In this document: positions 20,300-40,933 of the stretch, one piece after another
Position numbering within the stretch: position 1 is the stretch's first letter
Layout: each line of letters begins with the position of its first letter
Assembly (NCBI GenBank): GCA_903930485.1
Contig: CAIYYO010000024.1
Coordinates: 1 to 41,839, forward strand
DNA: 41,839 nt
Source: Methanobacteriota archaeon
GTDB taxonomy: Archaea > Altiarchaeota > Altiarchaeia > IMC4 > QMZM01
Reading direction: 5' to 3'
The notes under the pieces: generated by a model
Seen by the model: only the letters and a program-made list of their open reading frames with translations
Database searches by the model: none
What the model was told of the DNA's origin: nothing
Program-made: the position numbers and the translations under genes

Positions 20300-20302
20300 G
20301 CC

Positions 20303-24931: not shown

Positions 24932-25464
24932 AAAACATAAAAAAGTTTGGGAGGATATTTACGGCATTCTTTATTGTCTCTGTTTTTTTAACGCTCGGAT
25001 GCGTCCAGCAGCCGGGGAACCCTGGAACGACTCCGACAACGACTGTTGAGGCCACTACGACGGAGACGCCGGCAACGCCGACCGAGGTCCAGTCAACGGC
25101 GCCTCAGGTCACGATCCCTGCCGCGACCCCAACTCGGGAAACGAATACGGAAAAGATCGCTACGACGACTATGACGGCAACGGCAATTCCAACGACTGCC
25201 CAGAATACGGCAAAGACGGTTCAGGTTTCGATAAGCGGCTTCGCATTCCACCCTTCGATGGTAAATATTAATAAAGGCGATACCGTAGTCTGGACTAACA
25301 TGGATACTGCCCCCCACACCGTTACGTCAGATTCGGGAGGAGAGCTGTCTTCAAGCACGTTATCCCAGGGAGACACGTACTCGCACACCTTCAACTCCAC
25401 CGGGGCGTTTGCTTATCACTGCAGCATACACACTTCGATGAAAGCTGATGTGAACGTTAAATAA
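24928..25464 (+). CDS. Cupredoxin (amicyanin/halocyanin-like blue copper protein), lipoprotein with a Thr/Pro-rich linker
   Basis: 178 aa. Its start overlaps the upstream stop in an ATGA, and a GGGAGG ribosome-binding site is present. It has a signal plus LTLGC and a ~70-aa T/P/A-rich linker. The type-1 Cu ligands are APHTV...YHCSIHTSM. Confidence 0.8.
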   Translation: MKNIKKFGRIFTAFFIVSVFLTLGCVQQPGNPGTTPTTTVEATTTETPATPTEVQSTAPQVTIPAATPTRETNTEKIATTTMTATAIPTTAQNTAKTVQVSISGFAFHPSMVNINKGDTVVWTNMDTAPHTVTSDSGGELSSSTLSQGDTYSHTFNSTGAFAYHCSIHTSMKADVNVK

Positions 25465-25568
25465 CCCTAATAGTCGACGGCAGGCCGTGCATGCTGGAGC
25501 TTTCTTTAGTATCCCTCATAACCCTTTCCTATAAATCCGGGGCTGTCTTATATATTTAAGGTGAGACT

Positions 25569-26063
25569 ATGGACCGGGTAATAAATCTGTTGATTTTCGC
25601 AGTTATTTTGTCGCTTATCCTGTCCCCAGGCTGCGCGCATCAAAGCACAAAGCCGCAAGCTGAAACGACCACAGTCCCTGAAGAGAACCCCGTTCCTACG
25701 GAAAGCCCCATAGCAACGACTACGACTCTTACGAGCTCCAACGGATTCAACTCCTCCATCAACGATTCAGAGGCGAAGTCTACTACGACTACGCTGCCCG
25801 GGGACGTATCGAAGATGATCAATCTGGCGATAAAGAATTTTGAGTACAGCGAGGTCGCGCTGAGGATCCGTAAGGGCGACACGATCGTATGGACAAACCT
25901 CGACACGGTCGCACATACCGTGTCCTCGGACACGGGCGGCGAACTGGATTCCGACACGCTCGTCAGGGGAGAGACTTTCATGCACACCTTCAACAGCCCC
26001 GGGGTATTCAACTACCATTGCAAGATCCATCCGTCGATGAAAGCCAAGGTGATAGTCTCATGA
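25569..26063 (+). CDS. Cupredoxin, second paralog, lipoprotein with a Thr-rich linker
   Basis: 164 aa with an AGGTGA ribosome-binding site, a signal plus LSPGC, and type-1 Cu ligands VAHTV...YHCKIHPSM. Confidence 0.8.
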   Translation: MDRVINLLIFAVILSLILSPGCAHQSTKPQAETTTVPEENPVPTESPIATTTTLTSSNGFNSSINDSEAKSTTTTLPGDVSKMINLAIKNFEYSEVALRIRKGDTIVWTNLDTVAHTVSSDTGGELDSDTLVRGETFMHTFNSPGVFNYHCKIHPSMKAKVIVS

Positions 26064-26415: not shown

Positions 26416-28317
26416 ATGCCTTCAAAAAACGCACCAACCGCCTTGGAAGATCTGAGAAAAAAGAGCCCGGAGAAATTCCCATCATCGGAAACCGCATTCA
26501 GCCGCATACATTCCGGGGACCACATACTGATAGGCTCGGGCTGCGGCGAGCCTCAATATCTGTTAAAGTCTTTCATCTCGTATGTCCGGGCCAACCCCAA
26601 GGCGATCCTTGATGCCGAAGTATTCCAGTTATGGGCCCTGGGAAACGTTCCTTATGGCGACGAGCGGCTTGCAGAGAACCTGCGCCACAATTCTTTTTTC
26701 ATAGGCTGCGAAGTCCGGGAAGCCGTGAACAAAGGGCTTGCCGACTATACGCCGATCTCTCTTTCAGACGTGCCGGATCTTTTTTTCAGGGGCATCGTGC
26801 CTGTCGACGTCGCTCTCATACAGGTTTCTCCCCCGGACGTTGAAGGATTCATGAGCCTCGGGGTCAGCGTCGACATCGTGAAGTCGGCAGTAAAACAGGC
26901 ATCCCTCGTAATCGTGCAGGTCAACTGCAACATGCCGAGGGTTTCCGGAGACGGACGGCTCCATGCGGACGATGTCGACTATATCCTTCCATGCGATGAG
27001 CCCCTTATCGAATACCGGCCCGAGGTCGACGAGGAGACTGCTGGAAAGATCGGCAACTATTTATCCCGCCTGGTGCATGACGGTGAGACGATACAAGCCG
27101 GCTACGGCGGGCTCGTCTCTTCTGCAGTGGCGCATCTTAAAGACAAGAAGCATCTGGGCGTACATACTGAGCTTTTGTCCGGCGGCCTGGTGAGCCTCTT
27201 GAGATCCGGGGCCGTTGACAACAGCAGTAAGACGGTCAACCCCTGGAAGACGGTTGCATCATTTTGCATGGGTACGCAAGAGGATTACCGATTCCTTGAC
27301 GGCAACACGGGAATAGAGTTCAGGGGAATAGAGTATACGAACGACCCGCTCGTCATCGCCGGGCACGAGAACATGACTGCGATAAACAGTGCCCTGGGCA
27401 TAGACCTGACCGGTCAGGCGACCGAGGAGTCTGTCGGAAAGTCTTTCTACGGCGGGATAGGCGGGCAGGCGAATTATATGCGCGGGGCGGTCCTTTCCAG
27501 GAACGGTAAAAGCATTCTCGTCCTCGAATCGACTGCCGAAGGCGGGAAAGTTTCTCGGATAATGCCTTTCCTCGAAGAAGGCGCCGGCGTCACCTTGAAC
27601 CGCGGCGACGTCCATTACGTGGTCACCGAGTACGGAATAGCATACCTGCACGGAAAGAACATACGCGAGAGAGCCATGGAACTGATATCCATCGCCCACC
27701 CGCGTTTCAGGCCGCACCTCCTCGCAATCGCTAAGAAGAACAATATCGTGTACCCCGACCAGGCTTTGATATCGGGAAAGAACGGAACATATCCCGAGGG
27801 ACTGGAGGCGTACCGGACGACGAGGACTGGGCTAGGCATCCTCCTTCGGCCGGTTAAGATAACCGACGAGCACCTTCTAAAGGACTTCTTCTATTCCCTT
27901 TCAGAGGAGAGCCTCTATCACCGGTTCATTTCTGTTAGGAAAGACATGCCTCACCACAGGCTCCAGGATTATACGGTCATAGACTACGAAAAACGCATGA
28001 TAATACTCGCAGTCTCGCCGGACGAAAAAGACGAAGAACTTATAGGAGTAGGACAATATGATATACTGGAGGACTCCCACACAGCAGAGATCGCCTTCGT
28101 CGTCAGGGACAAATACCAGAACAAAGGCGTGGGTAAAGAGCTTTTGAAATACCTCACGTACATCGCGAAAAAGAAAGGCTTGCTTGGCTTCAAGGCCGCA
28201 GTCCTGCCTGACAATAAAGCGATGACGACGCTCTTCGAAGAGGCCGGATTCGAAGCAGACAAAAAGACCGCCGACGGATTATACGAATACAGATCGATCT
28301 TCAGGAGGAGACAATGA
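26416..28317 (+). CDS. Fusion protein: acetyl-CoA hydrolase/transferase-family domain (4-hydroxybutyrate CoA-transferase-like) plus C-terminal Pat-type GNAT acetyltransferase domain
   Basis: 633 aa with a GGTG ribosome-binding site. The N-terminal ~450 aa carry GVHTE and GGIGGQANYMRGA motifs. The C-terminal ~165 aa carry YHRF...DY.....LAV....ELIGVGQY......TAEIAFVVRDKYQNKGVGKELL...A...G......VLPDNKAM..LFEEAGF, which is typical of the protein lysine acetyltransferase (Pat) GNAT. Confidence 0.75.
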   Translation: MPSKNAPTALEDLRKKSPEKFPSSETAFSRIHSGDHILIGSGCGEPQYLLKSFISYVRANPKAILDAEVFQLWALGNVPYGDERLAENLRHNSFFIGCEVREAVNKGLADYTPISLSDVPDLFFRGIVPVDVALIQVSPPDVEGFMSLGVSVDIVKSAVKQASLVIVQVNCNMPRVSGDGRLHADDVDYILPCDEPLIEYRPEVDEETAGKIGNYLSRLVHDGETIQAGYGGLVSSAVAHLKDKKHLGVHTELLSGGLVSLLRSGAVDNSSKTVNPWKTVASFCMGTQEDYRFLDGNTGIEFRGIEYTNDPLVIAGHENMTAINSALGIDLTGQATEESVGKSFYGGIGGQANYMRGAVLSRNGKSILVLESTAEGGKVSRIMPFLEEGAGVTLNRGDVHYVVTEYGIAYLHGKNIRERAMELISIAHPRFRPHLLAIAKKNNIVYPDQALISGKNGTYPEGLEAYRTTRTGLGILLRPVKITDEHLLKDFFYSLSEESLYHRFISVRKDMPHHRLQDYTVIDYEKRMIILAVSPDEKDEELIGVGQYDILEDSHTAEIAFVVRDKYQNKGVGKELLKYLTYIAKKKGLLGFKAAVLPDNKAMTTLFEEAGFEADKKTADGLYEYRSIFRRRQ

Positions 28318-30443
28318 CCGATAAACCGGACATAACAAGCCTGTTCGAGCCTCGCACCGTAGCGGTTGTCGGAGCCTCCCACAACCCTGAAAAGATCGGC
28401 TACAAGATTGTCGAGAACATAATCGCCTGCGGATACGCCGGCAGGATCTGTCCGATAAATCCCGAAGGCGGCGAGATACTGAAGCTCCCGGTCTACAAGA
28501 ACGTGGGCGACGTCGACGGGGAAATCGACGTGGCGGTCATAACCATCCCCTCGAAATACGTTTACGACGCCGTCAAGGCCTGCGCGGACAAAGGCGTCAA
28601 GTACTCGCTCATAATATCTTCCGGTTTCTCGGAGGTCGGCGACTACGAGAGCGAAAAGAAGATCGTCTCATGCGCGCAGGAAGGCGGTATGCGCATCATC
28701 GGGCCCAACATCTTCGGCATGTATGTCGCTAAGTCCTCGTTCAACGCAACCTTCGGTACAAGGGACGTACGCCCGGGCGGGATAGCGATAATAACCCAGA
28801 GCGGCGCCCTGGGAATATCCCTCATGGGCAAGACGGCGGTGATGAACATAGGGCTTTCAGGGATGTTCTCTCTCGGGAACAAGTCCGACGTAGACGAATC
28901 CGACCTGCTGGAATACCTGATAACCGACGACAGCACGCGGATAATAATGATGTACGTCGAAGGCGTAAAGAACGGCGGCCGTCTTGTGGAGCTGCTCAAG
29001 AAAGCTACCTCAAAAAAGCCAGTGATCGTCATCAAGGCCGGCAGGTCGAAGCGCGGGGCGATGGCGGCTGCATCCCATACCGGCTCCCTTGCAGGTTCGG
29101 ATGCGGTCTTCTCGGACATAATGAAGCAGTGCGGCGTCATACGCGCCGAAAGCATTCAGGAGGCCCTTGACGCGTGCAAGTACATCTCTAATTCCCCTCA
29201 GCCGAAGGGCGAGAATTCGGTCATAATAACTAACGGAGGCGGCATGGGAGTCATGGCAGCCGACGCATGCGAAAAATATTCCGTGAACCTTTACGACAAT
29301 ATAGAAGACCTTAAAAGGACATTTTCAAAAGTCGTGCCGGCATTCGGTTCCGTGAAGAATCCAGTGGATCTTACCGGCCAGGCGACGCTGGAGAACTACA
29401 AGACTGCGATAGACGCGGCGCTGGCGAACAAAGACATCCACACGGTTATATGCCTTGGATGCGAGACAGCGTTCTTCGATGCATCCAAGATAGCAGAGAT
29501 GATTAAAGGGTTGTATTCAAACAGCAAGCCTGCCAAGCCTTTGGTCTATTCGTTTTTCGGCGGCGCAAGGATTGAGGATTGCATAACGAGCCTTAAAGCC
29601 GTCGACATACCGGCGTTCTCCGACGTCTACGAAGCGGTCTCCTGTATGGGTGTATTGTACGAGAACTACAGGAACACGGCTTACGCGACCGAATCCGACC
29701 AGAAGGAAGAACAAGGGATCGACGATCCTTCAATAGACGTGATAGTCAAAAAGGCACTGGGTGAGGGCCGGCACTTCCTGCTGTCTTACGAGGCTGAAAA
29801 AGTCATGGCCGCCGCAGGTATACGGATGCCTAAGAGCTTCCTTGCGAAAGACTTTGACGAGGCCGTGAAATTCGCGGAAAAGATCGGTTATCCCGTAGCG
29901 CTGAAGGTCGTCTCAAAGGATATAATCCATAAAAGCGATGCAGGCGGCGTTGCTTTGAATCTCGAGAACAGGCAGGAGGTTTTGGACGCGTATCAGGTGA
30001 TACTCTACAACTGCAAAAAAGCCAAACCGGACGCAGTCATAGAAGGCGTCTCCGTGAGCGAGATGATGAAGAAGGAAATTGAAACCATCGCCGGCGCGGT
30101 AAGGGATAAATCGTTCGGGCCCGTCGTGATGTACGGCCTAGGCGGCGTGTACGTGGAGATATTGAACGATGTCGCATTCAGGTCTTTCCCTCTAGGCAGG
30201 AAGGACATACTCAAGATGATAAACGAAACAAAGTCGTCGCAGCTCCTCATGGGCGCAAGGGGCGAGAAACGCAAAGACGTCGGCTCCGTCGTGGATGCCG
30301 TGTCAAAGCTCGGAACAATACTCGCAAGGCATGAAGAGATATCTGAAATAGAGATCAACCCGCTCATGGTCTATGAGGACGGGCAGGGGGTAATGGCCCC
30401 GGATGTGCGGATCCTGTTGTCAAAGGGTCCGGAGGCGAAATAG
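28314..30443 (+). CDS. ADP-forming acetyl-CoA synthetase (acetate--CoA ligase, NDP-forming; fused alpha-beta)
   Basis: 709 aa, with its start overlapping the upstream stop in an ATGA. It has a CoA-binding N-terminus (VAVVGAS..P.KIGY), the phosphohistidine loop AAASHTGSLAGS and a C-terminal ATP-grasp region (GYPVALKVVS.DI.HKSDAGGV). Confidence 0.9.
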   Translation: MTDKPDITSLFEPRTVAVVGASHNPEKIGYKIVENIIACGYAGRICPINPEGGEILKLPVYKNVGDVDGEIDVAVITIPSKYVYDAVKACADKGVKYSLIISSGFSEVGDYESEKKIVSCAQEGGMRIIGPNIFGMYVAKSSFNATFGTRDVRPGGIAIITQSGALGISLMGKTAVMNIGLSGMFSLGNKSDVDESDLLEYLITDDSTRIIMMYVEGVKNGGRLVELLKKATSKKPVIVIKAGRSKRGAMAAASHTGSLAGSDAVFSDIMKQCGVIRAESIQEALDACKYISNSPQPKGENSVIITNGGGMGVMAADACEKYSVNLYDNIEDLKRTFSKVVPAFGSVKNPVDLTGQATLENYKTAIDAALANKDIHTVICLGCETAFFDASKIAEMIKGLYSNSKPAKPLVYSFFGGARIEDCITSLKAVDIPAFSDVYEAVSCMGVLYENYRNTAYATESDQKEEQGIDDPSIDVIVKKALGEGRHFLLSYEAEKVMAAAGIRMPKSFLAKDFDEAVKFAEKIGYPVALKVVSKDIIHKSDAGGVALNLENRQEVLDAYQVILYNCKKAKPDAVIEGVSVSEMMKKEIETIAGAVRDKSFGPVVMYGLGGVYVEILNDVAFRSFPLGRKDILKMINETKSSQLLMGARGEKRKDVGSVVDAVSKLGTILARHEEISEIEINPLMVYEDGQGVMAPDVRILLSKGPEAK

Positions 30444-31478
30444 ATGCAAAAGATAATTATCGCTTCTGCAAGCAGAGGCGCAGGGAAGACTTTTGTGACC
30501 GTGGGACTGATGAAGGCGGCCGGGAAGGGTCTCGGCTACATAAAGCCGCTCGGGAACCGGCTAGTCTACTCCCGGAAAAAACTCTGGGACTATGATGCTG
30601 CGCTCATAGCCAAGGTCTTCAAGCTCCAGATGCCGCCGGAAGATCTCACGATAGGCTTCGAGCATGCGAAGATCAAGCACTCATACACGAAGGATGCCGT
30701 GAAAAAGAAGGTCCTCGAGCTTTCGGCCGAAGCGTCGAAGGGCAAGAAAGCCCTCATCATAGAAGCCGGAACAGATTTGTGTCACGGGACAAGCATAAAC
30801 CTCGACCCGATCTCGCTTGCCAAATACGTGAAAGGGAAGATTGTCCTCGTCGTGAACGGGGACGATTACGACGCCCTCGACGATTCGCTCTTCTTCGGCT
30901 CGTGCATCAAGAAGACAGGCGCAGGGTTCGCAGGAGTGATAATAAACAACGTCAAAGACCCGTCGGGGTTCCGGGACCTGTACCTGCCGCGGATCAGGGA
31001 AGCAGGGATAAAGGTTCTTGGGATCATTCCATACAACGACGCCTTAACCCACTACGATGCCGGCTATCTGGCCGATAATCTTTTCTCCAAGACGTTAACC
31101 GGCGAAGCCGGCCTGGGCAAGGTCGTAGAGAATGTGTTCGTAGGAGACGTGTCTTCCACGACGGCTCTCAAGAACCCCTCATTCCATAAGAAAGGCAACC
31201 TCGTCATAACCGGAGGCGACAGGAGCGACATGATCCTCGCGGCCATAGAAACGGGCGCATCATGCGTTATATTGACCAACAACATAATGCCGCACGCGAA
31301 CATAATATTAAAGGCATCGCACGCGCAGGTCCCACTGCTGCTGGTTCCGACCGATACGTACACGACGGCAGTAAGGGTCGAGCACCTCGAGCACATGCTG
31401 ACGGAAAAAGACGAGGAGAAGATCGCAGCCCTGGGCAGGATGGTCAAGAAGCACGTGAAGCTGAAAGAAATATTTTAA
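30444..31478 (+). CDS. DRTGG-domain protein resembling the N-terminal regulatory region of phosphotransacetylase (no PTA catalytic domain)
   Basis: 344 aa; its ATG directly abuts the upstream TAG. It has a P-loop-like ASASRGAGKTFVTVGL and a DRTGG-type LVITGGDRSDMILAAIETGASCVILTNN. Confidence 0.7.
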   Translation: MQKIIIASASRGAGKTFVTVGLMKAAGKGLGYIKPLGNRLVYSRKKLWDYDAALIAKVFKLQMPPEDLTIGFEHAKIKHSYTKDAVKKKVLELSAEASKGKKALIIEAGTDLCHGTSINLDPISLAKYVKGKIVLVVNGDDYDALDDSLFFGSCIKKTGAGFAGVIINNVKDPSGFRDLYLPRIREAGIKVLGIIPYNDALTHYDAGYLADNLFSKTLTGEAGLGKVVENVFVGDVSSTTALKNPSFHKKGNLVITGGDRSDMILAAIETGASCVILTNNIMPHANIILKASHAQVPLLLVPTDTYTTAVRVEHLEHMLTEKDEEKIAALGRMVKKHVKLKEIF

Positions 31479-31533: not shown

Positions 31534-32178
31534 ATGAAGGCTTGTTTCCTTCTTTTCTTGGCGGCTTGTTTGACTCTTACATGCTGCACCGGTCAGGTGG
31601 ACCAGAACCTGAAATCGGTGGAGATAAAAGAATACAACGGGACGAAATTGGGCTCGATGACCGACTTCGTCGAGAACTCGATTAACGGGCCGCAGTCCGT
31701 CAATATCTCGACCTACCGGCTGTCTGTGGACGGCCTGGTCGCTAACCCTCAGCATTACACATATTCTGAGGTGCTGGGCCATAGAAGCTTCCTTAAAGTG
31801 ACCACTCTCGACTGCGTTGAAGGCTGGAGCGTGAAAGTCCTCTGGCACGGCGTTCTGGTTTCAGACCTCGTCGACGAAGCGAAGCCGTCGCCCGGCGCGA
31901 ACACCGTCATATTCCATGCCTATGACGGATATACGACGTCGCTTCCTCTTCAGTACGTCCGGGACAAGAAAATACTACTGGCCTATAAGATAAACAACGT
32001 GACTCTACCTCCGGCTAACGGTTACCCGTTCCAGCTCGTCGCCGAAGACAAGTGGGGGTACAAGTGGATCAGATGGGTGGACGAGATACGAGTATCCAAT
32101 GATTCGTCTTATAAGGGATACTGGGAGAGCCGGGGTTATAGCAATGACGGAGACAACTCCCGGCCTATGTTTGGCTGA
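31534..32178 (+). CDS. Molybdopterin-dependent oxidoreductase, MsrP/YedY-like catalytic domain, lipoprotein-type signal
   Basis: 214 aa with the signal LLFLAACLTLTCC. LDCVEGWSVKVLWHGVLV carries the Mo-ligand Cys motif of the YedY/sulfite-oxidase family, and GYPFQLVAEDKWGYKWIRW is also present. Confidence 0.75.
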   Translation: MKACFLLFLAACLTLTCCTGQVDQNLKSVEIKEYNGTKLGSMTDFVENSINGPQSVNISTYRLSVDGLVANPQHYTYSEVLGHRSFLKVTTLDCVEGWSVKVLWHGVLVSDLVDEAKPSPGANTVIFHAYDGYTTSLPLQYVRDKKILLAYKINNVTLPPANGYPFQLVAEDKWGYKWIRWVDEIRVSNDSSYKGYWESRGYSNDGDNSRPMFG

Positions 32179-32184
32179 GGTCTG

Positions 32185-32190
32185 TTTTTT
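32185..32190 (+). terminator. Oligo-T tract after the molybdoenzyme gene
   Basis: tttttt begins 7 nt after the TGA stop at 32176-32178. Confidence 0.4.
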
Positions 32191-32260
32191 GATCAATGAG
32201 GCCTCCAAAACCGTCTATTAAGGAATATTTTCCTAGACATAACCCTGGGGTTGAAAAGAA

Positions 32261-32878
32261 ATGGATGCAAAAAACAAGATCTACGTTCTGCCGGAACTGC
32301 CTTATGCCTACGATGCATTGAAGCCGTACATATCTGAAGAACAATTGAGGATACACCACGACAAGCATCATGCGGCTTATGTAGCCGCGGCGAACGCTCT
32401 TCTGGAATCGCTTGAAAAGGCGAGGCAGGGAAATACGGACCTGGATTACGGAACGGTCGCAAAACAACTGTCCTTCAACACTGGAGGCCATCGGCTGCAT
32501 TCGCTCTACTGGAAGAACCTGACTCCCGTGGATAATACCGGCAAGGCGCCGAAGCCCTCGGGAGAGATAGGCAACGCCATAGACCGGGAATTCGGAAGCT
32601 TCGACCGCTTCAAAAAAGAGTTCTCGCAGACCGCGGCAAAGACCGAAGGCTCGGGCTGGGCAGTCCTATCGTTTTGCCGCGAGGTCGAGCGGCCTATAAT
32701 AATGCAGGTCGAGAAGCACAATATGAACGTGACGCCAAGGCGTCCCGTGATACTGGTGCTGGACGTATGGGAGCACGCATACTATCTGGACTACAAGAAC
32801 GACCGGGCCAAATACGTTGAAAACTTCTGGAACATAGTCAACTGGGACGAAGTGGGCAGGCGGCTTGCAGATCTGTAG
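32261..32878 (+). CDS. Fe/Mn-family superoxide dismutase
   Basis: 205 aa with LPELPYAYDALKPYIS...HHDKHH and DVWEHAYYLDY motifs. Confidence 0.95.
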   Translation: MDAKNKIYVLPELPYAYDALKPYISEEQLRIHHDKHHAAYVAAANALLESLEKARQGNTDLDYGTVAKQLSFNTGGHRLHSLYWKNLTPVDNTGKAPKPSGEIGNAIDREFGSFDRFKKEFSQTAAKTEGSGWAVLSFCREVERPIIMQVEKHNMNVTPRRPVILVLDVWEHAYYLDYKNDRAKYVENFWNIVNWDEVGRRLADL

Positions 32879-32891
32879 AAAAAATAAACAC

Positions 32892-33752
32892 ATGAAGGGC
32901 GTTTCTGTTTTCCGAGATTCATTGGGGCTTTTCAGGCAGGCCTTCTCCGAATGGAACAAGGACAATGCATCCCTTATCGCGGCAGCCATAGCATACTATG
33001 CGGCGTTTTCCCTGGCTCCTTTGATGATAATCCTGATGGTCATCTCTGGTTTACTCGTAGGTCCTGCCGGACAGACCGGCAGGCTACAAAGAAGCGTTAG
33101 CGGCTTCCTGGGGGCCGAAATCGCCGCATCTCTGGAGGGAATCATACGCACCGTCGGCAGTTCTCCCCCAAGCTACTTTGCCACTGCGTTGGCCGCCCTG
33201 TTTTTGTTTTTGGGAGCGACCGGACTGTTCCTCCAGACAAGGAAAGGCTTACAGATAATATGGGGCCTGAAACCCGCGGCTGGGGGAGCCATTCTAAATA
33301 CGCTGAGATCCTATCTCCTCTCATTCGTCCAGCTAGTCCTGGCAGGGCTTATAGTGCTGCTTTCAGCCGCCCTTACGGCAGTGATCACATCGACCGGAAG
33401 GTCTCTTAGAGTTATCCCGTTCCATTTCACCCTGCTCCACATGGCAAATTTTCTGGTTTTTTTTATTGCCGTCTGCATTCTGTTCGCATCGACTTACAAG
33501 ACGCTCTCCGACGCGCGGCTGCTATGGAGCGACGTCTTATACGGTTCGGCATTCACCGCAGCGCTTTTCTCGGCAGGGAACATCATAATAGGAACATATC
33601 TGGGAGCCGCGAACATCGGATCCGTTTACGGCGCCGCAAGCTCGATCTTCGTCGTAATCTTCTGGGTATACTATTCTGCGCAGATATTCTTTTTCGGGGC
33701 AGAGCTGATCAAGGTATATTCGAAAAGGTGCGGGTCGCAGAAGTGCGTTTGA
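32892..33752 (+). CDS. YihY/BrkB-family membrane protein
   Basis: The ORF starts at 32865 and overlaps the SOD gene, so the ATG at 32892 (MKGVSVF) is preferred. It has IAAAIAYYAAFSLAPL and a C-terminal VIFWVYYSAQIFFFGAEL. Confidence 0.75.
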   Translation: MKGVSVFRDSLGLFRQAFSEWNKDNASLIAAAIAYYAAFSLAPLMIILMVISGLLVGPAGQTGRLQRSVSGFLGAEIAASLEGIIRTVGSSPPSYFATALAALFLFLGATGLFLQTRKGLQIIWGLKPAAGGAILNTLRSYLLSFVQLVLAGLIVLLSAALTAVITSTGRSLRVIPFHFTLLHMANFLVFFIAVCILFASTYKTLSDARLLWSDVLYGSAFTAALFSAGNIIIGTYLGAANIGSVYGAASSIFVVIFWVYYSAQIFFFGAELIKVYSKRCGSQKCV

Positions 33753-33765: not shown

Positions 33766-34284
33766 TTAACGTCTATTCCTTATGCTCCTCATCAGCGCCA
33801 GCAGCCCCTTCATTAACTCTTTCGGCTCTGGCGGATTCCCGGGTATTTTGATATCGACCGGCAGTATCATGTCCGCGCCGCCGAGGACTGCGTATGTCCC
33901 TTTATAGATCCCGCCGTCGCACGCGTCGTCCCCGACCGCCATTACGTACTTGGGCGAAGGAGTCGCATCATACGTCTTTTTCACTGCCCCGGCCATGTTG
34001 CGCGTGACCGCGCCGGTTATAACAATAACGTCCGCATGCCTCGGCGACGCTACGAAGGTTACTCCGAATCTTTCGACGTCGTAGTGAGGCGTCCCCAGGT
34101 TGTTCAATTCGATTTCGGCGGCATTGTCGCTTCCGCTATCAAGTTCGCGAATGGCAAGGCTTCGCCCAAATATGGTGTCTATGTCCTTTTTCAGCCTGAT
34201 GCCTAGCGCCTCGAATTCTTCGTCCTTGAAAGTGACTTCCTCAGTCACGGGTTTTTTGAAAATGTTCGTGATAGCTTTGTTCAT
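33766..34284 (-). CDS. NuoB/HycG-like small subunit lacking the canonical [4Fe-4S] cysteine ligands
   Basis: The start at 34284 (MNKAITN) is 5 nt after the large-subunit stop. The longer ORF to 34572 overlaps that gene. The fold motifs are clear: YDVERFGV..VASPRHADV.VITGAVT and PK.V.AVG. The cluster motifs are degenerate: GSDNAAE instead of GSCNGCE, GDDACDGG instead of GxCAxxGG, and IPGNPP instead of IPGCPP. Confidence 0.8.
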   Translation of the reverse strand: MNKAITNIFKKPVTEEVTFKDEEFEALGIRLKKDIDTIFGRSLAIRELDSGSDNAAEIELNNLGTPHYDVERFGVTFVASPRHADVIVITGAVTRNMAGAVKKTYDATPSPKYVMAVGDDACDGGIYKGTYAVLGGADMILPVDIKIPGNPPEPKELMKGLLALMRSIRNRR

Positions 34285-34289
34285 TTTTT

Positions 34290-35870
34290 TTACAAGTCTG
34301 TGCCCGAATATGAAAGGTTGAAACTCTTGTTGATCAGGGGGAAATCCGGCACGATGTTGCCGATGACTGCGTGTTCTATCGCCTGCCAGTTGCAGAACGA
34401 GGCCGTGCGTATTTTGTATCGGTCGACGACGCCGTTCTTTACCCAAATCCAGTGGAAGCTTTGGCCCCTTGCGCATTCGACGAGGGAGGTGGCGTAGCCG
34501 TCCCTGATGGCATAATCCGTAGATACCGGGCCCGAAGGCAGATCGTCGAGCGCCTTTTTTATCATCCTGCACGAGTCGAGGATATCCGAAGCCTTTGTCT
34601 CGAACCTTGCCAGGACGTCGCCCTCGTCTACGGTTTTCACGTTCGGTTTTATTTTTTCGTATAGGCCGTAGGGGTGATATATCCTGGTATCTGTAGAAAG
34701 CCCATTCGAGCGCGCCATCGGTCCGGTTATGTGCAGGGCCGCTAGCAGCTCTTTACGTATAACGCCCGTCTTTTCGAATCTGTCTATGACCGAGGGCGTT
34801 GAACGCACATATTCGACCGACTCTTCAAACGTCTCTATACATTTATCCAGGAAGGTAGGCAGCTGTTTCAGCGCGTCTTCCGGAACGTCTTTTTTCAGCC
34901 CGCTTATGCCTATGACGTCTTTCATGAAACGCGAACCTGTAAGGGCCTTGTTCTGTCTCAGGATCTCTTCCCGTAATATGAAGAACGGGCTAGCGCCTAC
35001 CGGGAACGCGACGTCGACGCACATCCCGGCAAGGTCTCCGAGAAGCGAATAGATCCTTTCCATCTCGAGGAAGACAGTGCGCAGGCGCCATGCGCGTTCC
35101 GGCGGCCGGATGCAGCAGAGCTTCTCTATGGCATTGCAATATGCGACGGCGTTGGATACCTTCTCGTCTCCGCTTATGGATTCCGCGATCCTCACGCATT
35201 CCTCGGGCGTTTTCCCTTCCGCCAGTTTCTCTATCCCGCGGTGTTTGTAGAACATCCGTATCTCGAGGTGGTAGATCGTCTCTCCTATGACGCTGAACCT
35301 GAAGTGTCCGGGCTCTATGATCCCGGCGTGGACTGGTCCGACGGGTATCTCGTAGACTCCTTCGCCTGCGACTTTTCTGAACTGGTATTCTCCAGCGCCG
35401 GTCGGCTCGCCGTTTTCCATTGTATCGAGCTCAGAGTTCTTGAACCCTTTTTGCAGCGGGTGGAACCCTTCTGGGTATGATTCGTGCAGGAAGAGCCTTC
35501 TTTCGTCGAAGGGGTTTGTGAACCTTATGCCGTAGCCGTCGGTCGCTTCTCTTTCGTACCATGACGCCGACGGGAACGACGACGTTATCGATGGCGCGCT
35601 TTCCCATCTGAGCGGGAGCCGGAATACTGCGATCTCTTTGTAGGGCTTTTTCTCGAATGCATAGAGCAGCGTGTAGGCGGCGTGCGCATCAAAGCCTTCG
35701 ACGCAGAAAAGGCTTGCGAGTTCGTAGGCGCTTGCTGACAGGAGATGCATGACGGTCTCCAAGTCCCTCTCAGCTAGGGTAATGTAGACGTCGTTATTGC
35801 ACCCTATCTTTGCGTCTGACTCGACTATCCTGCCCCTTGTCGTATATGCTATGTCGTCTATAAGCTCCAT
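34290..35870 (-). CDS. NuoC-NuoD fusion (HycE/HyfG-like large subunit) lacking all [NiFe]-binding cysteines
   Basis: 526 aa with an N-terminal NuoC-like part (WYEREA.DGYGI.F) and a NuoD-like part (PVGPVHAGIIEPGHFRF, RMFYKHRGIEK). The L1 motif reads SISGDEKVSN where CG[ILV]Cxx.H is expected. The C-terminus reads NLSYSGTDL-stop where DPCxSCxDR is expected. Confidence 0.85.
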   Translation of the reverse strand: MELIDDIAYTTRGRIVESDAKIGCNNDVYITLAERDLETVMHLLSASAYELASLFCVEGFDAHAAYTLLYAFEKKPYKEIAVFRLPLRWESAPSITSSFPSASWYEREATDGYGIRFTNPFDERRLFLHESYPEGFHPLQKGFKNSELDTMENGEPTGAGEYQFRKVAGEGVYEIPVGPVHAGIIEPGHFRFSVIGETIYHLEIRMFYKHRGIEKLAEGKTPEECVRIAESISGDEKVSNAVAYCNAIEKLCCIRPPERAWRLRTVFLEMERIYSLLGDLAGMCVDVAFPVGASPFFILREEILRQNKALTGSRFMKDVIGISGLKKDVPEDALKQLPTFLDKCIETFEESVEYVRSTPSVIDRFEKTGVIRKELLAALHITGPMARSNGLSTDTRIYHPYGLYEKIKPNVKTVDEGDVLARFETKASDILDSCRMIKKALDDLPSGPVSTDYAIRDGYATSLVECARGQSFHWIWVKNGVVDRYKIRTASFCNWQAIEHAVIGNIVPDFPLINKSFNLSYSGTDL

Positions 35871-35882
35871 ATTTTTCTTCTT

Positions 35883-37334
35883 CTAAAATCCGAGTCCGGA
35901 AACTATGCTATTCAATGCTCCGTCCAAAGGCTGCGGGAAGAACAACCCGAGGCCGTAGACCAGTATTATGAGGATTATCACCGGGATTTTCATCCTTACA
36001 GGTGTGGGGTAACGGCGCATAACGTCGTTCTCGTCTATTCTCGTGAAGATGGCGGTGATGAATAATGCGAAGCCGGCGGCCGCTAACAACAGCAGGAGGA
36101 GAACTGCGATGAGGAGGATCGTCGAGAACTTCGCCACCTGGACGAGGATGGAAAATTTTGTAATGAAAACGATTGCTGGCGGGATCCCTATTATGGCAAG
36201 GCTTCCGAGGATCAGTCCTGCAGAGGCAAGCGGCTGCAGTTTTAGCGCGTTCTTTATGTTCTCGATCTTGTTGCTGTCGTATTGCCGGTTCAGTATCCCC
36301 GCCGACAGGAATAGAAGGGCTTTGGTAAGGGAATGGGCAAGGACGTGATACAAAGTCCAGTAGATCGCGATCGGTGTCCCGATTCCGATTCCTATGAGCA
36401 TGAGTCCTGCGTGTTCCGTGCTTGAGAATGCTATCAGTTTTTTCAGATTCTTCTGCTGCAGCATGCTGAAGGCTGCGATGAACAGGCTGAGGATTCCGAA
36501 AGCTATCAGGAGGTTCGAACACGTCGCGGCCGAGCCTGGGTTCTGCCTCGTTATCGAGTAGATGCGCAGTATTCCGTATATCCCTATGTTCAGCATGACG
36601 GCCGAGATTATGGCGCTTACTGCCGAGGGGGCTTTCGAGTAGGCGTGCGGCAGGCTTGTATGCAGCGGCGCTATTCCGGATTTGGCCGCGTATCCGAGGA
36701 ACATGAACGCGAAGCTTGCGGCAAGGGGCGCTGCCGGGAAGGTTTTTGCGTTCTTGAGCAGGACGTCCCAGTTCAGTGTCCCTGTTCCGAGGGTTTTTTC
36801 AGTCAGGGCGAACAGGAGGATCAGGCCGATGAACGAGAACAGCATCGCAGTAGACGTGACGAATATGTATTTCAGCGACGCATCTATGTTCTTTTTCGAG
36901 TTCAGTATGGCTATGAGGAAGGCCGTGAAGAACGTGGTGAGTTCGGCGAATATCCAGAACAGCGCAAGGTTGTTGGACGAAAAGGCGAGGACTGTGAACA
37001 ATAGCAGCGCATTGAAGGAGAGATAGTAGCCCTTAAGGTTTTTCCTTTCAAGGATGCCGATCTTTATCAGGCTCTCTGCATGCCCTCCTGCATAGACTGC
37101 GGCGAGCAGGAAGATCGTGCCGGCGATGAATATCTCGTAGGTGCTGAGGGCGTCGATATACAGGTTGTTTTCAAGATAGTAAACCGGAATGGCGCCGGAA
37201 TACTGGAGGCAGGCGGCGAACGCGATGCATGCGATGGCGTGGGCTATTGCAACAAGATTCATAGCTTTATGCGATTTCAGGAATTGCGTGAGCGCAAGGG
37301 CCGCGAAAGCCGCCAGAAGATAATATTGGAGCAT
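35883..37334 (-). CDS. Antiporter-like subunit (NuoM/N, HyfD/F-type)
   Basis: 483-aa polytopic protein with Mrp/NuoN-type motifs (SGIAPLHTSLPHAYSKAP, AFSSTEHAGLML). Confidence 0.8.
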   Translation of the reverse strand: MLQYYLLAAFAALALTQFLKSHKAMNLVAIAHAIACIAFAACLQYSGAIPVYYLENNLYIDALSTYEIFIAGTIFLLAAVYAGGHAESLIKIGILERKNLKGYYLSFNALLLFTVLAFSSNNLALFWIFAELTTFFTAFLIAILNSKKNIDASLKYIFVTSTAMLFSFIGLILLFALTEKTLGTGTLNWDVLLKNAKTFPAAPLAASFAFMFLGYAAKSGIAPLHTSLPHAYSKAPSAVSAIISAVMLNIGIYGILRIYSITRQNPGSAATCSNLLIAFGILSLFIAAFSMLQQKNLKKLIAFSSTEHAGLMLIGIGIGTPIAIYWTLYHVLAHSLTKALLFLSAGILNRQYDSNKIENIKNALKLQPLASAGLILGSLAIIGIPPAIVFITKFSILVQVAKFSTILLIAVLLLLLLAAAGFALFITAIFTRIDENDVMRRYPTPVRMKIPVIILIILVYGLGLFFPQPLDGALNSIVSGLGF

Positions 37335-37335
37335 T

Positions 37336-38061
37336 TTACGCCTCCTCCCCGTTTCTTTTCCTTAAATGCTCGAACCTCTTCTGCAGCCGGGGGATATGGA
37401 TGGCGTTGAATTTCTCCCTGAACTCCTCCACGCTGGAATCTACTCCTATGGAAAGGATGGCCGCGAGCAGGACTATCATAAAAAGGTCTATCATCACAAG
37501 CACCTCTATCATGAAAGGCAGCTCGGTCAGAAACAGGCTGAAGAGCAGGACCCCGTTCTCCATCGTCAGATAGCCGATCACCTTGGTGATTACTTTTTTC
37601 CTGCTGAACGTGATGAGCATCCCCATGAGAGTAAGGGATATCCCGAATACCGCGCCGAGATAGAAGAGGTCGCCGGGCGAGAGTTCCCGCAGGATCTTTG
37701 TGAACGAGCCGTAGACGAGTAGGATCAGGAATATCATCGCGGTTATGGATTCCATCGGCGAGAGATAGTGGAAATCTATGTCTCGGGATATTTTTATCTC
37801 TTTCTGTATCTTTTTTATGGCATAAGGTATCAGTATCACTTTGCTGGTCACTGTCAAGACGGCCAGGTATAAGAGCATCTCGCTTCCGTTGGAAAGATAA
37901 AGAGAAACAGCGATGACCGACAATAGCAGGGACTGGAGCTGGTATGCCGAGACCAGTGAAAGAAGGTCTTTCCTCGTCACGACGAACGCGCCGGTCACCA
38001 GGACCATGACCAGGAGCGCCTCTATCCAGTCGCCGCCAGCCGGCAAGCCTGACGCTATCAT
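37336..38061 (-). CDS. HyfE-like small membrane subunit
   Basis: The start at 38061 forms an ATGA overlap with the stop of the upstream gene. The ORF extension to 38259 lies inside that gene. The protein is ~241 aa with multiple TM helices and a hydrophilic tail. Its position and size match HyfE of hydrogenase-4-type operons. Confidence 0.65.
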   Translation of the reverse strand: MIASGLPAGGDWIEALLVMVLVTGAFVVTRKDLLSLVSAYQLQSLLLSVIAVSLYLSNGSEMLLYLAVLTVTSKVILIPYAIKKIQKEIKISRDIDFHYLSPMESITAMIFLILLVYGSFTKILRELSPGDLFYLGAVFGISLTLMGMLITFSRKKVITKVIGYLTMENGVLLFSLFLTELPFMIEVLVMIDLFMIVLLAAILSIGVDSSVEEFREKFNAIHIPRLQKRFEHLRKRNGEEA

Positions 38062-38999
38062 CCGAACACCTCCAACCATATCGTGAGGATCGAGAAGAAG
38101 AACGCTATCATGAAAAGGCTGGGCAGGTTGAAGAACCTCATCTTTGCCATGGAAGATTCCACAAGGCCGGTCACGAAAGAAAGCAGGCCGGCCTTTAAGG
38201 CGAATGCTGCGGCAGCGATCAGTATTCCTGCGACGGTGAGCTCCGAGGTCAGCCCCCATGGAAGGAGTATGTTTATCAGGACCGCCATGTATAGCGTTTG
38301 TTTTATCGCGTGGGAAAGCTCCATCAGGGCAAGGTCTCTTCCGGAGTATTCGAGGACCATCGCCTCATGGACCATGGTGAGCTCCAAATGAGTCTCGGGA
38401 TTGTCCACCGGCACTCGAGAGGTCTCGACTATGAGGACGATGAACAAGGGGATCGCTATGAGAAGCAGTCCCGGGTTCAGGAATGCGGTCGCACCGGCTC
38501 TTTCAAGGAACATCTGATGGAAGTCGGTGGTATGCAGGCTGAAAGAAAGGGCGGCGAATGCTATGATCGTTATCGGCTCGATGATGGCCGATATGCTCAT
38601 CTCCCTCGAGCTTCCCATGCCTCCGAAGGTGCCTCCGGCATCCAGTCCGGACAAAGCCATGAAGAATTTTGCCAGCGCGAGCATGTAGAGGAACAGGATG
38701 ACGTTGCCTATCCCGTCGGTCGGCGTAGGTATCAAAGCCAGGGGTATGCACAGCGAAGCCACGAGCATCACTGCTATGTTGATGTAAGGCGTCGCCCTCA
38801 TGATGGCCGACGTGTTCTTTGAATAGATCCTCTCTTTTTTCAGGAGCTTGGACAGATTGTAATACGGCTGCAGGAGCGGCGGGCCTCTCCTACCCTGCGC
38901 CCGCGCCTTGACAATCTTTATGAGCCCCATGTAGAACGGCGATAACAGCACCACCAGTACGGTGTTCAGCAGGGCGTATAACAGGAACGAGGCGTTCAT
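38058..38999 (-). CDS. NuoH/HycD/HyfC-like membrane subunit
   Basis: The ATG at 38999 forms an ATGA overlap with the upstream stop (the ORF track starts at the GTG at 39008). Motifs are RAQGRRGPPLLQPYYNLSKLLKKE and ETSRVPVDNPETHLELTMVHEAMVLEYSG. Confidence 0.85.
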   Translation of the reverse strand: MNASFLLYALLNTVLVVLLSPFYMGLIKIVKARAQGRRGPPLLQPYYNLSKLLKKERIYSKNTSAIMRATPYINIAVMLVASLCIPLALIPTPTDGIGNVILFLYMLALAKFFMALSGLDAGGTFGGMGSSREMSISAIIEPITIIAFAALSFSLHTTDFHQMFLERAGATAFLNPGLLLIAIPLFIVLIVETSRVPVDNPETHLELTMVHEAMVLEYSGRDLALMELSHAIKQTLYMAVLINILLPWGLTSELTVAGILIAAAAFALKAGLLSFVTGLVESSMAKMRFFNLPSLFMIAFFFSILTIWLEVFG

Positions 39000-40933
39000 A
39001 TGAACCACCCCACGTAGACCATGATCAGGACCGCGGCGATGAATACGTATGCCAGGTATGTGTCCAGGTTCCAGTTCTGGAGCCGGGAAACCTTCTCGGA
39101 TAATGAATTAACGAGCCTCGCAATAGGGAGATAGAGCGCTTCCTCGAAGAATTTCACCAGATGTATCTCTGCGCTGCCCTGCACGAAAAGGCTCTTGCTC
39201 TCGTCAAAATACGTCGCCTCCCTGACCTCCTTTGTCCTGTATATCGAGCTGAATATCCTGACGATGGGCTGGGAGTATCCGGATGCGGTGTATTCGTTCC
39301 TCCCGGTCTGCGTTAATATGCCGCAGCCCCACGTTTCCCCCATTCTTTCCGCGCTCGATGAAACGTTTTTCAAGACAAACCATGCAAGAACGTAGGCCGC
39401 CGCGAGGAACGACCCGATAAGCAACAGGTCAGGTATGGGCAGAACGTATCCTGCGCCTGCGAATATCTGGTAGGAAAAGATGCCGAGGGACATGCATAAA
39501 AAGGCAAGTATCATGGGTCCGAGGAGCATGTATTTCCCAACCTCTTTCGCATTCTTTGCATTATCAGACCTCGGGGCCGCGAGGAAGGTTATGCCGAAGG
39601 CTTTCACGAAGCATGCGGACGCAAGGGCGCTCGTCAATGCGAGAATCGCAAGCGAGGAAAGCATGAGCACCTTCATGAAAGGATCGACCAAGGCATAGGA
39701 TTGCAGGAGCGCGGTGAATATCATGAGCTCGCTTACGAAGCCGTTGAACGGAGGGAGACCGGAGATTGATACGGCGCCTACGAGAAAGAACAATGCGGTG
39801 TACGGCATCCTCTTCACGAGCCCGCCCATGTCTTCGATGTTCCTCTCGCCGGTCCTGTAGACCACGGAGCCGGCAGTCAGGAAAAGAAGGCTCTTGAAGA
39901 CGGCATGGTTGAGGACGTGGAAAAGCGAACCCAACAGGCAGAGCATTGCGATATCAGGGAGGTTGTTATTCGTGAATATTATGTACGCTCCGAAACCGAT
40001 GAGGATTATCCCTATATTCTCTATGCTGTGATAGGCCAGCAGCCGTTTTATGTCGTGCTCCTTGAGGGCGTATATGACCCCCAGTATCGCTGAAAGAGTC
40101 CCGGCGACGAGGATGAGCACCCCCCACCAGGTTTCAGGCTGCAGGACCGTGAGCGTGAAGCGCATCAGGCCGTATATTGCGACTTTGATCATGACCCCGG
40201 ACATCAGGGCAGAAATATTCGACGGGCTTGCCGTATGCGCGTATGGAAGCCATTTATGGAACGGTATAACGCCGGCCTTTATGCCGAAGCCGACGAAAAG
40301 CGCCAGGAATACCACTCCTGCGGCGCCGGTACCGATATCTGCTGGCTGTATCGCAAAAGACCCAGTCACTGCATTGAGCCCCAAGAATCCGGCCGTCAGG
40401 AACAACGTCGACAGCTGCGTCATGATGAAATAGAACAGTCCGGCCTTGCGGGTCTCGGGCTTTTCGTATTCGAACAAGACCAGGGCGAACGACGACATAG
40501 ACATTATCTCCCAGAAGAACAGGAAGGCGAACATGTTCGCAGAGGACACGACGAACAACATGGCAGCTATGAAGAGATTCATCAAACCCGTAAGGATGTT
40601 CTTCCTCTTCTCCCCGTGCCAATGTCCTATGTACTGAACCGAGTATATCGAAGCGCTCAATGCGACGACTGAGATAAGCAGGATGAAAAAAGCAGCCAAG
40701 CGGTCTATACGAAAAGAGAGCACAAGACCTGGGGCGATCCCGTACGGCGCAAGGTATACCTGCTGGTTCGTATACAGGATAAATACGGAAAACGAGATGA
40801 ACACGAGCAGGGCGAGCATCGAGAAAAACAGGGCTATCCGTCTCATCACGCCGTCTCCGCCGATCCTCACGAGCGGGAGGACCGTTCCGAGGAGCAGTAA
40901 GGCTGCGCCTACGTAGAAAGCAGTCGAGAGCAT
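38996..40933 (-). CDS. NuoL/HyfB/HycC-like antiporter-type subunit
   Basis: 645-aa polytopic protein with FFWEIMS, PFHKWLPYAHTASPSNISALMSG and AYHSIENIG motifs. Confidence 0.85.
   Translation of the reverse strand: MLSTAFYVGAALLLLGTVLPLVRIGGDGVMRRIALFFSMLALLVFISFSVFILYTNQQVYLAPYGIAPGLVLSFRIDRLAAFFILLISVVALSASIYSVQYIGHWHGEKRKNILTGLMNLFIAAMLFVVSSANMFAFLFFWEIMSMSSFALVLFEYEKPETRKAGLFYFIMTQLSTLFLTAGFLGLNAVTGSFAIQPADIGTGAAGVVFLALFVGFGIKAGVIPFHKWLPYAHTASPSNISALMSGVMIKVAIYGLMRFTLTVLQPETWWGVLILVAGTLSAILGVIYALKEHDIKRLLAYHSIENIGIILIGFGAYIIFTNNNLPDIAMLCLLGSLFHVLNHAVFKSLLFLTAGSVVYRTGERNIEDMGGLVKRMPYTALFFLVGAVSISGLPPFNGFVSELMIFTALLQSYALVDPFMKVLMLSSLAILALTSALASACFVKAFGITFLAAPRSDNAKNAKEVGKYMLLGPMILAFLCMSLGIFSYQIFAGAGYVLPIPDLLLIGSFLAAAYVLAWFVLKNVSSSAERMGETWGCGILTQTGRNEYTASGYSQPIVRIFSSIYRTKEVREATYFDESKSLFVQGSAEIHLVKFFEEALYLPIARLVNSLSEKVSRLQNWNLDTYLAYVFIAAVLIMVYVGWFI

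Follow-up and report, generated by a model that had tools for sequence, protein, structure and literature searches.

A conserved Ehr-type operon on an altiarchaeal contig encodes a NuoB-like small subunit without the [4Fe-4S] cluster ligands

Background

Complexes of the Ehr type (energy-converting-hydrogenase-related) are defined as relatives of the group 4 hydrogenases whose large subunit is devoid of the Ni-Fe cysteines (PMC6349859, PMC10284858, PMC3569383). The naming goes back to two studies, Coppi 2005 and Marreiros 2013 (cited by PMC7894505, PMC6688271 and PMC3569383), and the subunits have been listed in the order ehrABCDLS (PMC7894505, PMC6688271), which in Geobacter sulfurreducens and Methylacidiphilum comprises A (NuoL-like), B (NuoH-like), C (HyfE-like), D (NuoN-like), L and S. 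Ehr complexes are widespread, and their function is listed as unknown in papers up to 2026 (e.g. PMC10284858, PMC10432482); a role in pH homeostasis has been suggested (PMC6688271), and a 2026 paper treats the Ehr of Geobacter KN400 as non-functional (PMC13194489). Here we describe an operon of this kind from an archaeon of the Altiarchaeota (GenBank assembly GCA_903930485.1, contig CAIYYO010000024.1, positions 1 to 41,839; this whole stretch of 41,839 nucleotides is referred to as the window), and in particular its last gene, ehrS, which encodes a NuoB-like small subunit lacking the cysteine ligands of the [4Fe-4S] cluster.

The nearest solved relatives of the window complex are the Hyc/Hyf hydrogenases of E. 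coli (HycG/HyfI, HycE; PDB 7z0s) and the membrane-bound hydrogenase (MBH) of P. furiosus (MbhJ/MbhL, 6cfw), which contain both a Ni-Fe site and a proximal [4Fe-4S] cluster, have a ferredoxin subunit (HycF/HyfH/MbhN) and evolve H2. The Q-module of complex I (NuoB/Nqo6/NDUFS7 and NuoD/NDUFS2) has, like Ehr, a large subunit without a Ni-Fe site, but it contains cluster N2 and a quinone-binding Tyr and is combined with NuoA/I/J/K and an electron-input module. It is still debated how complex I, MBH and formate hydrogenlyase turn the chemistry of their NuoB/NuoD interface into the translocation of ions.

Results

The small subunit and its former cluster ligands

The gene ehrS occupies positions 33766..34284 on the minus strand and encodes a NuoB/HycG/MbhJ-like protein of 172 aa, identified by Pfam, by alignment to PDB entries and by AlphaFold2 modelling with Foldseek. 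Its start codon is the ATG at 34284; homologues can be aligned from the first residue onwards, and independent gene calls likewise give 172 aa. A longer open reading frame (ORF) of 268 aa with a GTG start was rejected, since it runs into the upstream gene and both full-length homologues and public gene calls favour the shorter product. An identical protein (100%) is encoded on 5-6 public contigs. EhrS matches Pfam Oxidored_q6 (PF01058) with E 4.5e-25 and 88 bits (cut-off 27) over profile positions 4-128 of 128, and the NCBIfam NuoB subfamily NF005012 with 133.9 bits (cut-off 116).

A preliminary description, made from the letters of the window, had reported three degenerate ligand motifs in this protein, and translation of 33829-34134 on the minus strand gives exactly these: GSDNAAE (34114..34134), GDDACDGG (33910..33933) and PGNPP (33829..33843), with the likewise reported fold motifs YDVERFGV, SPRHADVIVITGAVT and PVDIKIPG lying between them. 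Five solved homologues, among them NDUFS7, MbhJ and HycG, could be aligned to EhrS by HMMER without gaps, which fixes the register and puts D53, A56, D120 and N150 at the four ligand positions Cys1 to Cys4. For example, 'SGSDNAAEIE' of EhrS aligns to 'SGSCNGCDIE' of P. furiosus MbhJ and to 'CGGCNGCEIE' of E. coli HycG, so that GSDNAAE is the counterpart of the C-x-x-C motif of hydrogenases or the CC motif of complex I, with an invariant D53 at Cys1 and a variable residue (A, T or P) at Cys2. Similarly, 'GSCANGGG' and 'IPGCPP' of human and mouse NDUFS7 align to 'GDDACDGG' and 'IPGNPP' of EhrS (E 9.5e-32), which places D120 at Cys3 and N150 at Cys4, the latter with a clade-specific invariant K146 four residues upstream.

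The second of these motifs requires a correction. The Asp at the Cys3 position stands. The Cys two residues after it (C122), which had been described as non-homologous, is not new, and neither is D119: among 150 representatives, both residues are common at the same positions in relatives that keep all four ligand cysteines (patterns CNC-A/D-C-C-C), so that these two residues are ancestral and not ligands. C122 is the sole Cys in EhrS, which otherwise holds two His in its whole length, and no register shift can therefore create a four-Cys site; a shifted register or alternative ligands, named beforehand as what would overturn the reading, were ruled out by this single Cys together with the ungapped alignments. 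A cubane cluster in EhrS is accordingly unlikely on the residues present, as the preliminary description had held.

The NuoB fold, by contrast to the ligands, is retained in the predicted structure. The AlphaFold2 model (built with 64 homologues) has a mean predicted local distance difference test score (pLDDT) of 85.5, and a Foldseek search of the PDB with this model returned NuoB, NDUFS7, HycG and MbhJ chains only. The match to MbhJ (6cfw_J) has template modelling (TM) scores of 0.73/0.87 at a root-mean-square deviation (rmsd) of 2.2 A, that to Aquifex NuoB an rmsd of 1.7 A, and many NDUFS7/NuoB chains are found at E ~1e-15.

Conservation and selection

A protein database search with EhrS yielded 4219 relatives at E<=1e-10, of which the best 120 (66-82% identity) were used for residue counts. 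In these, the Cys1 position is D in 119/120, Cys2 is A, T or P, Cys3 is D in every case in which the motif was matched, and at Cys4 there is N (IPGNPP) in ~111/120 or D (IPGDPP) in ~6/120. Overall, D53, N54, D119, D120 and C122 show no or almost no variation, and the conservation of N150 is at least 90%. Residues that are invariant in the clade of the window and different in all outgroups are A44, I58, N62, K103, D120, C122, K146, N150 and L164 in EhrS, and E236, N240, G282, P384 and H500 in the large subunit EhrL.

When one genome per GTDB species was scanned, 516 EhrS relatives came up, and the best 80 of these served for all comparisons of loci. Their archaeal hosts include Altiarchaeota (the top match, with 80% identity), Methanosarcina (cultured strains among them), Methanoregula with other Methanomicrobiales, Bathyarchaeia, Woese- and Nanoarchaeota and Thermoplasmatota, and bacterial hosts are Dehalococcoidales and Moduliflexus. 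Methanosarcina strains with the operon are, for instance, M. hadiensis and Methanosarcina sp. T3. Across phyla EhrS shares 64-80% identity as against 40-69% for the other five subunits, which makes it the most conserved protein of the operon. The same is seen in the nonsynonymous divergence (dN), which is 0.19-0.23 in EhrS versus 0.23-0.45 in the other subunits, with synonymous divergence (dS) saturated. All six reading frames are intact, and pseudogene formation or decay of ehrS was ruled out by this conservation and by dN/dS. As judged from these alignments, the ligand replacements in EhrS are a conserved trait of the family and not a sign of decay.

The ehrABCDLS operon

The gene ehrS is the last of six co-directional and closely spaced genes on the minus strand (33766-40933). 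Directly upstream, ehrL (34290..35870) encodes a large subunit of 526 aa, a fusion of NuoC and NuoD as in HycE (Pfam Complex1_30kDa and Complex1_49kDa), whose nearest solved relative is E. coli HycE (7z0s_E, 7e-67) and which is devoid of Ni-Fe ligands. In alignments to HycE and NDUFS2, the L1 equivalent SISGDEKVSN (35151..35180, minus strand; RVCGICGFAH in HycE) has S233 and E236 in place of the two Cys, and G234 aligns to the quinone-binding Tyr of complex I (NDUFS2 'DRLDYVSMMCN'), while N240 matches the Asn of 'MMCNE' in the latter. In the L2 equivalent NLSYSGTD (34296..34319, minus strand; DPCYSCTD in HycE) the two Cys are replaced by S520 and G523. S233, G234, D235, E236, N240 and the C-terminal motif NLSYSGTD are invariant in 74 family members. 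The protein ends in ...SYSGTDL, one residue past the L2 equivalent, and hence carries no C-terminal extension to be cleaved by a protease; no Hyp or maturation protease gene was found among the window ORFs scanned. EhrL residues ~218-237 (35130-35210, minus strand; AEGKTPEECVRIAESISGDEK) gave weak repeated phmmer matches to TALE repeat proteins (LTPEQVVAIASNIGGKQ), which we take as a chance likeness of one helix-loop unit.

The remaining four genes, all on the minus strand, encode the membrane arm. Two of them are antiporter-type subunits, namely the NuoN/HyfF-like EhrD (35883..37334, 483 aa; Pfam Proton_antipo_M 2.3e-49, NCBIfam NF006427 with 569 bits at a cut-off of 511) and the NuoL/HyfB-like EhrA (38996..40933, 645 aa; Proton_antipo_M 1.1e-59 plus Proton_antipo_N, NF006418 with 870 bits at a cut-off of 794). 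Between them lie ehrC (37336..38061), a HyfE-like membrane subunit of 241 aa that matches NCBIfam NF008556 'hydrogenase 4 membrane subunit' with 2.2e-14, under the cut-off of that model, and ehrB (38058..38999), a NuoH/HycD-like subunit of 313 aa (Pfam NADHdh 6.2e-37); public gene calls of 241 aa and 313 aa agree with these two. The charged membrane-arm residues (Lys, Glu, His) of the antiporter-like and NuoH-like subunits are kept. Conserved residues are E142, K219, H226, K227, K250, H339, H343 and K347 in EhrA, E141, E192, D199, E206, E212, E217 and E227 in EhrB, E168, E186 and D192 in EhrC, and E131, K218, H225, K338 and K393 in EhrD. The beta1-beta2 coupling loop PVGPVHAGIIEPGHFRF is found unchanged even in sister clades that are distant.

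The six ehr genes are found in the same order at ~65/80 loci from Archaea and Bacteria, the remaining ones being interrupted by contig ends. A gene for a HycF/NuoI-type 4Fe-4S ferredoxin was detected neither among the six genes of the window operon (Pfam, NCBIfam) nor in the 80 related loci, and the 10-kb flanks of these loci contain no other conserved gene family and no conserved partner gene (ferredoxin, formate dehydrogenase, hyp or carbonic anhydrase) beyond the six ehr genes. Some flanking families are lineage-specific, such as an ABC ATPase in 25/80 loci and a beta-carbonic anhydrase in 6/80. The latter (L019:1564-2112 and five like loci; Pfam Pro_CA 1.7e-42) lies ~8 kb upstream of ehrS in loci of the Methanoregula type; being lineage-specific and non-adjacent, it is probably a coincidence. 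A scan for bacterial promoters and terminators gave no excess over shuffled sequence, and since its models are bacterial and the host is archaeal it is not applicable here.

Two altiarchaeal loci deviate from the common arrangement. In the nearest genomic relative (Altiarchaeales nzgw1, L003:14290-17854), extra ehrA-, ehrB- and ehrC-like ORFs are located downstream of ehrS, and the tblastn match of EhrA falls in these ORFs, not upstream of ehrS. In Altiarchaeales IMC4 SM1 (L079:10001-10516, on a 1.39-Mb contig) ehrS was found and the other five ehr genes were not detected within 10 kb on each side, which may reflect masked sequence or a solitary ehrS.

Sister clades and the loss of the cluster

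A wider search of 1.84 billion representatives at 50% identity, in which the clade of the window collapses to about three sequences, yielded 6645 relatives. One of the nearest other groups is a clade from Acidobacteriota, Handelsmanbacteria and others (L083-L085), which shares with the window clade the six subunits, the lack of a HycF/NuoI gene and of Ni-Fe cysteines in the large subunit, and an identical beta1-beta2 loop. Unlike in the window clade, the small-subunit gene stands first in the operon and the small subunit keeps all four Cys (GSCNGCE, GDCA, PGCPP); these are present at all four positions in 113/120 of the closest homologues of the L083 protein, the others being incomplete motif matches. 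Its large subunit has ISGD...H and N-x-SYSGNDL in place of the Ni-Fe cysteines, with the Arg and His of L1 retained (S231 and N240 in the window clade). Compared with this cluster-containing sister, the interface between L and S in the window clade has gained D53, D120, E236 and K146 and lost the L1 Arg and His. In the sister complexes (L083:7356-14666, L084 and L085) the [4Fe-4S] cluster would be a lone one without evident donor or acceptor, and a gene with an ArsR-type helix-turn-helix domain is located just upstream of the cluster of genes.

Other clades have lost the ligands in different ways. The Ehr of CPR/Patescibacteria (PMC7304191; L086-L088) resembles that of the window in its six subunits and in the absence of both Ni-Fe and small-subunit ligand cysteines, but has T/S/N, E, G and D at the four positions instead of D, A/T/P, D and N, and its small-subunit gene comes first. 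In Chloroflexi (L089) the positions are D, A, A and D, again with a large subunit without Ni-Fe cysteines. In a neighbour-joining tree the Cys-less sequences seem to fall into at least five separate lineages, with Asp at Cys1 and Cys3 recurring in three of them; this tree is crude (BLOSUM distances over 127 columns, no support values) and backs several losses in a qualitative sense only. As a change from Cys to Asp takes two nucleotide substitutions, its recurrence in separate lineages would point to selection rather than mutational bias. Furthermore, since the four Cys are kept or lost among the same six-subunit complexes, the cluster appears to be dispensable for their core function.

A different combination occurs in another contig (L091:210-2353; ENA ERZ27311206 k141_5873008), in which the large subunit keeps all four Ni-Fe cysteines (L1 EGACGVCSVTH, L2 ELCYACTDR) and the adjoining small subunit has S, A, E and S at the cluster-ligand positions. 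Judging by these motifs, it would be a putative [NiFe] large subunit paired with a cluster-less small subunit and without an obvious electron path.

Relation to described systems

In its six-subunit composition and gene order and in the missing Ni-Fe cysteines, the window complex is recognizable as an Ehr complex and agrees with those of Geobacter sulfurreducens and Methylacidiphilum. It differs from the described Ehr in that the small subunit additionally lacks all four [4Fe-4S] ligands, with a conserved D/x/D/N in their place, and we file it as a predicted cofactor-free variant of the known type. The G. sulfurreducens prototype (GSU0739-0745) was not among the best 120 matches of any of three protein searches. 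No mention of a small-subunit cluster loss in Ehr was found in the literature searched; Coppi 2005 and Marreiros 2013, which are said to discuss the Ehr small subunit, fall outside that literature, and an earlier description is possible.

With Hyc/Hyf and MBH the complex shares the NuoC-NuoD fusion and the gene order HyfB-C-E-F-G-I (MbhJ matches EhrS with 2.2e-28), but none of their cofactors or their ferredoxin subunit. Indeed, the features by which a group 4 [NiFe]-hydrogenase is recognized, i.e. L1 RxCGxCxxxH, L2 DPCxxCxxH/R, a ferredoxin-like subunit (HycF/HyfH/MbhN/EchF/NuoI) and a cleaved C-terminal extension, are all absent. Likeness to complex I extends to the fold (NDUFS7 E ~1e-31) and to a large subunit without a Ni-Fe site. 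The Tyr of R-L-D-Y is missing, and in place of at least eleven core subunits including NuoA, I, J and K there are six genes. Lacking the defining features of both, the window Ehr is neither a hydrogenase nor complex I.

The functional analogy that we favour is with the Mrp antiporter, a redox-free machine of NuoL/M/N-type subunits with conserved Lys and Glu. The window operon likewise has two PF00361 subunits with conserved charges (E142, K219, K250 and others in EhrA; E131, K218 and K393 in EhrD), as judged by conservation within the family. Unlike Ehr, Mrp has no homologues of NuoH, NuoB or NuoD, and it has MrpB/C/E/F/G, which are absent from the window operon, where the HyfE-like subunit is the sole one found alongside EhrA, EhrB and EhrD in the membrane arm.

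Other genes of the window

The window genes fit an anaerobic archaeon (Nre, TiaS, a Cdc48-type AAA ATPase, NrdD). Genes adjoining ehrS are not conserved in other lineages, save in one Methanoregula locus with the Mo enzyme named next. Convergent to ehrS lie, on the plus strand (31534-33752), a molybdopterin oxidoreductase with a sulfite-oxidase/MsrP-like domain, an Fe/Mn superoxide dismutase and a BrkB/YihY membrane protein, the stop of the dismutase gene overlapping the TTG start of the BrkB ORF by 14 nt; the group resembles an oxidative-stress cluster, here in a NrdD-bearing organism. Further upstream on the same strand (26416-31478), the gene for a fusion of acetyl-CoA hydrolase/transferase and a GNAT acetyltransferase immediately precedes those for an ADP-forming acetyl-CoA synthetase-type protein of 709 aa and for a DRTGG/AAA_26 protein, with overlapping stop and start codons. 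At 22295-26063 (plus strand) an 878-aa protein with PQQ-type beta-propeller repeats and a C-terminal cupredoxin is followed by two small cupredoxin/plastocyanin-like proteins, a copper-protein set that is unusual for an apparent anaerobe; a gene for an NADPH-dependent FMN reductase is located beside it (21704-22249). Finally, phosphate ABC transporter genes are found at 14482-21139 (minus strand), in two tandem sets with one pstS-like and two permease genes each, followed by one ATPase and PhoU.

Discussion

What does a complex do that has kept the architecture of a redox-driven pump and lost its metal sites? With every metal site gone and strong conservation nonetheless across many anaerobic archaea and bacteria, the complex probably transports ions without any redox step. 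Indeed, EhrS has lost the last possible redox centre and is nevertheless the most conserved protein of the operon, from which we infer that the core function of the six-subunit Ehr of this type would not need electron transfer. Ion translocation would be the simplest activity for two antiporter-type subunits and a NuoH/HyfE channel. We prefer to see in the window Ehr a complex that translocates ions independently of redox chemistry and in which the former metal pockets would have turned into polar or acidic sites lined by carboxylates and amides, a reading to which we assign a probability of roughly 0.55.

Under this reading, an ancestral group 4 module would have been stripped of its redox centres, with the [4Fe-4S] ligands turned into D53/A56/D120/N150, those of the Ni-Fe site into S233/E236/S520/G523, and no ferredoxin subunit, while purifying selection would have preserved the NuoB and NuoD folds, the beta1-beta2 loop, the NuoH-like subunit and the two antiporter-like subunits. 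Ions could then be moved without electron transfer, either in an Mrp-like secondary exchange of cations and protons or by a conformational device driven by an ion gradient. The cytoplasmic L/S module might serve as gate or entry to the EhrB channel: a proton, a water chain or a cation would be taken up in the former metal pockets (D53-D120-N150, with K146, in EhrS and D235-E236-N240 in EhrL). That the module acts as a completely cofactor-free coupling device is a tentative elaboration: the carboxylates D53/D120 and D235/E236 would make up a cation or proton relay whose occupancy sets the conserved beta1-beta2 loop and the NuoH-like channel in motion, with the 'Q-module' as an ion-operated gate. 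The same caution applies to the narrower proposal that D53, D120 and N150 bind a cation or proton, which we consider possible and less than probable; the replacement residues are consistent with a different site such as a cation site, which the preliminary description had put forward.

Several points weigh against redox-independent ion translocation or against parts of it. The supposed Na+ carriers (MrpB/C/E/F/G, MbhA-G) are absent, so that an antiport cycle is not obviously complete, and the analysis brought to light neither an energy source nor a ligand for the cytoplasmic module. The loop 55-58 of the EhrS model has a pLDDT below 50, the sole region that low, and the geometry of the pocket is taken from homology to solved clusters. 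K146 may simply neutralise D53 and D120. Asp ligates Fe-S clusters in a few proteins, so that some metal may yet be bound. Lastly, Ehr proteins of Geobacter rise with formate (PMC7894505), a hint of a redox link, although the formate-responsive Ehr may be of the cluster-containing type.

The role of K146 leads to the alternative that we take most seriously, even if we consider it rather unlikely as a full account: D53, D120, N150 and K146 could form a buried network of salt bridges and hydrogen bonds around an empty pocket, with L and S as a passive cap that the membrane arm needs in order to assemble or to remain stable. Invariant within the clade, K146 is replaced by F, D, Y or W in all four outgroups, so that it altered jointly with D120 and N150; there is no constraint on the Cys2 position, and the Cys-less clades differ in their sets of residues (T/E/G/D, D/A/A/D, S/A/E/S), as is expected if a cavity can be filled in many ways. 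For the pocket of EhrS itself, such a filler is as simple an explanation as a new cation site. On the other hand, EhrS as the most conserved subunit exceeds the needs of a passive cap, carboxylates recur at the former ligand positions of independent lineages despite the two-step codon change, and the former Ni-Fe pocket has gained an invariant Glu and lost the L1 Arg and His, which renders the interface markedly acidic.

Acidic pockets could also hold a divalent metal and catalyse a non-redox reaction coupled to the ion gradient, e.g. vectorial conversion of CO2 and bicarbonate as in DAB and NDH-1 Cup, or another hydration or hydrolysis. Membrane modules of the complex I type are coupled to non-redox chemistry in DabAB and in the cyanobacterial NDH-1MS, and the hosts of Ehr are mostly CO2-fixing or methanogenic anaerobes; beyond this precedent there is the beta-carbonic anhydrase of the six Methanoregula-type loci. 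But this neighbour is confined to those non-adjacent cases, no partner gene is conserved in the flanks of the 80 loci, a His/Cys-rich Zn site of any carbonic anhydrase class is missing, and no tool result points to a candidate substrate, all of which makes such catalysis improbable. Slightly more improbable still is that the complex has remained a redox enzyme, either with a non-canonical centre built from Asp, Asn and Cys122 with ligands of EhrL or with electrons supplied by a partner encoded elsewhere, such as formate dehydrogenase. A partnership of the latter with Ehr has been proposed for Margulisbacteria (PMC6349859), Ehr of Geobacter is induced with formate (PMC7894505), and the sister clade retains its four Cys although it has neither Ni-Fe ligands nor HycF. 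Against this stand the single Cys of EhrS, the lack of a Ni-Fe site, of the quinone-binding Tyr (G234) and of a ferredoxin subunit, and the absence of any conserved redox gene near the 80 loci; moreover, the Margulisbacteria-type Ehr carries a NuoB-NuoI fusion that is absent in the window clade. A hydrogenase operon drifting after loss of function, as suggested for Geobacter KN400, where Ehr has been called non-functional (PMC13194489), would account for the disappearance of all catalytic ligands, but is hardly credible in view of six intact frames, 64-80% identity between archaeal and bacterial phyla, a dN far under the saturated dS, 516 relatives in species-representative genomes and invariant replacement residues.

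Conclusions

Current annotation labels genes of this kind either 'NADH-quinone oxidoreductase subunit B family' or else 'Ni,Fe-hydrogenase III small subunit'. When metabolism is reconstructed for methanogens, Bathyarchaeia, Altiarchaeota and Dehalococcoidia, they should be taken neither for hydrogenase nor for complex I. As the same operon is present in cultured Methanosarcina strains, its function can be approached experimentally. If the tentative proposal of a carboxylate relay holds true, the 'Q-module' would be an ion-operated gate of an antiporter-type membrane arm and not a redox site.

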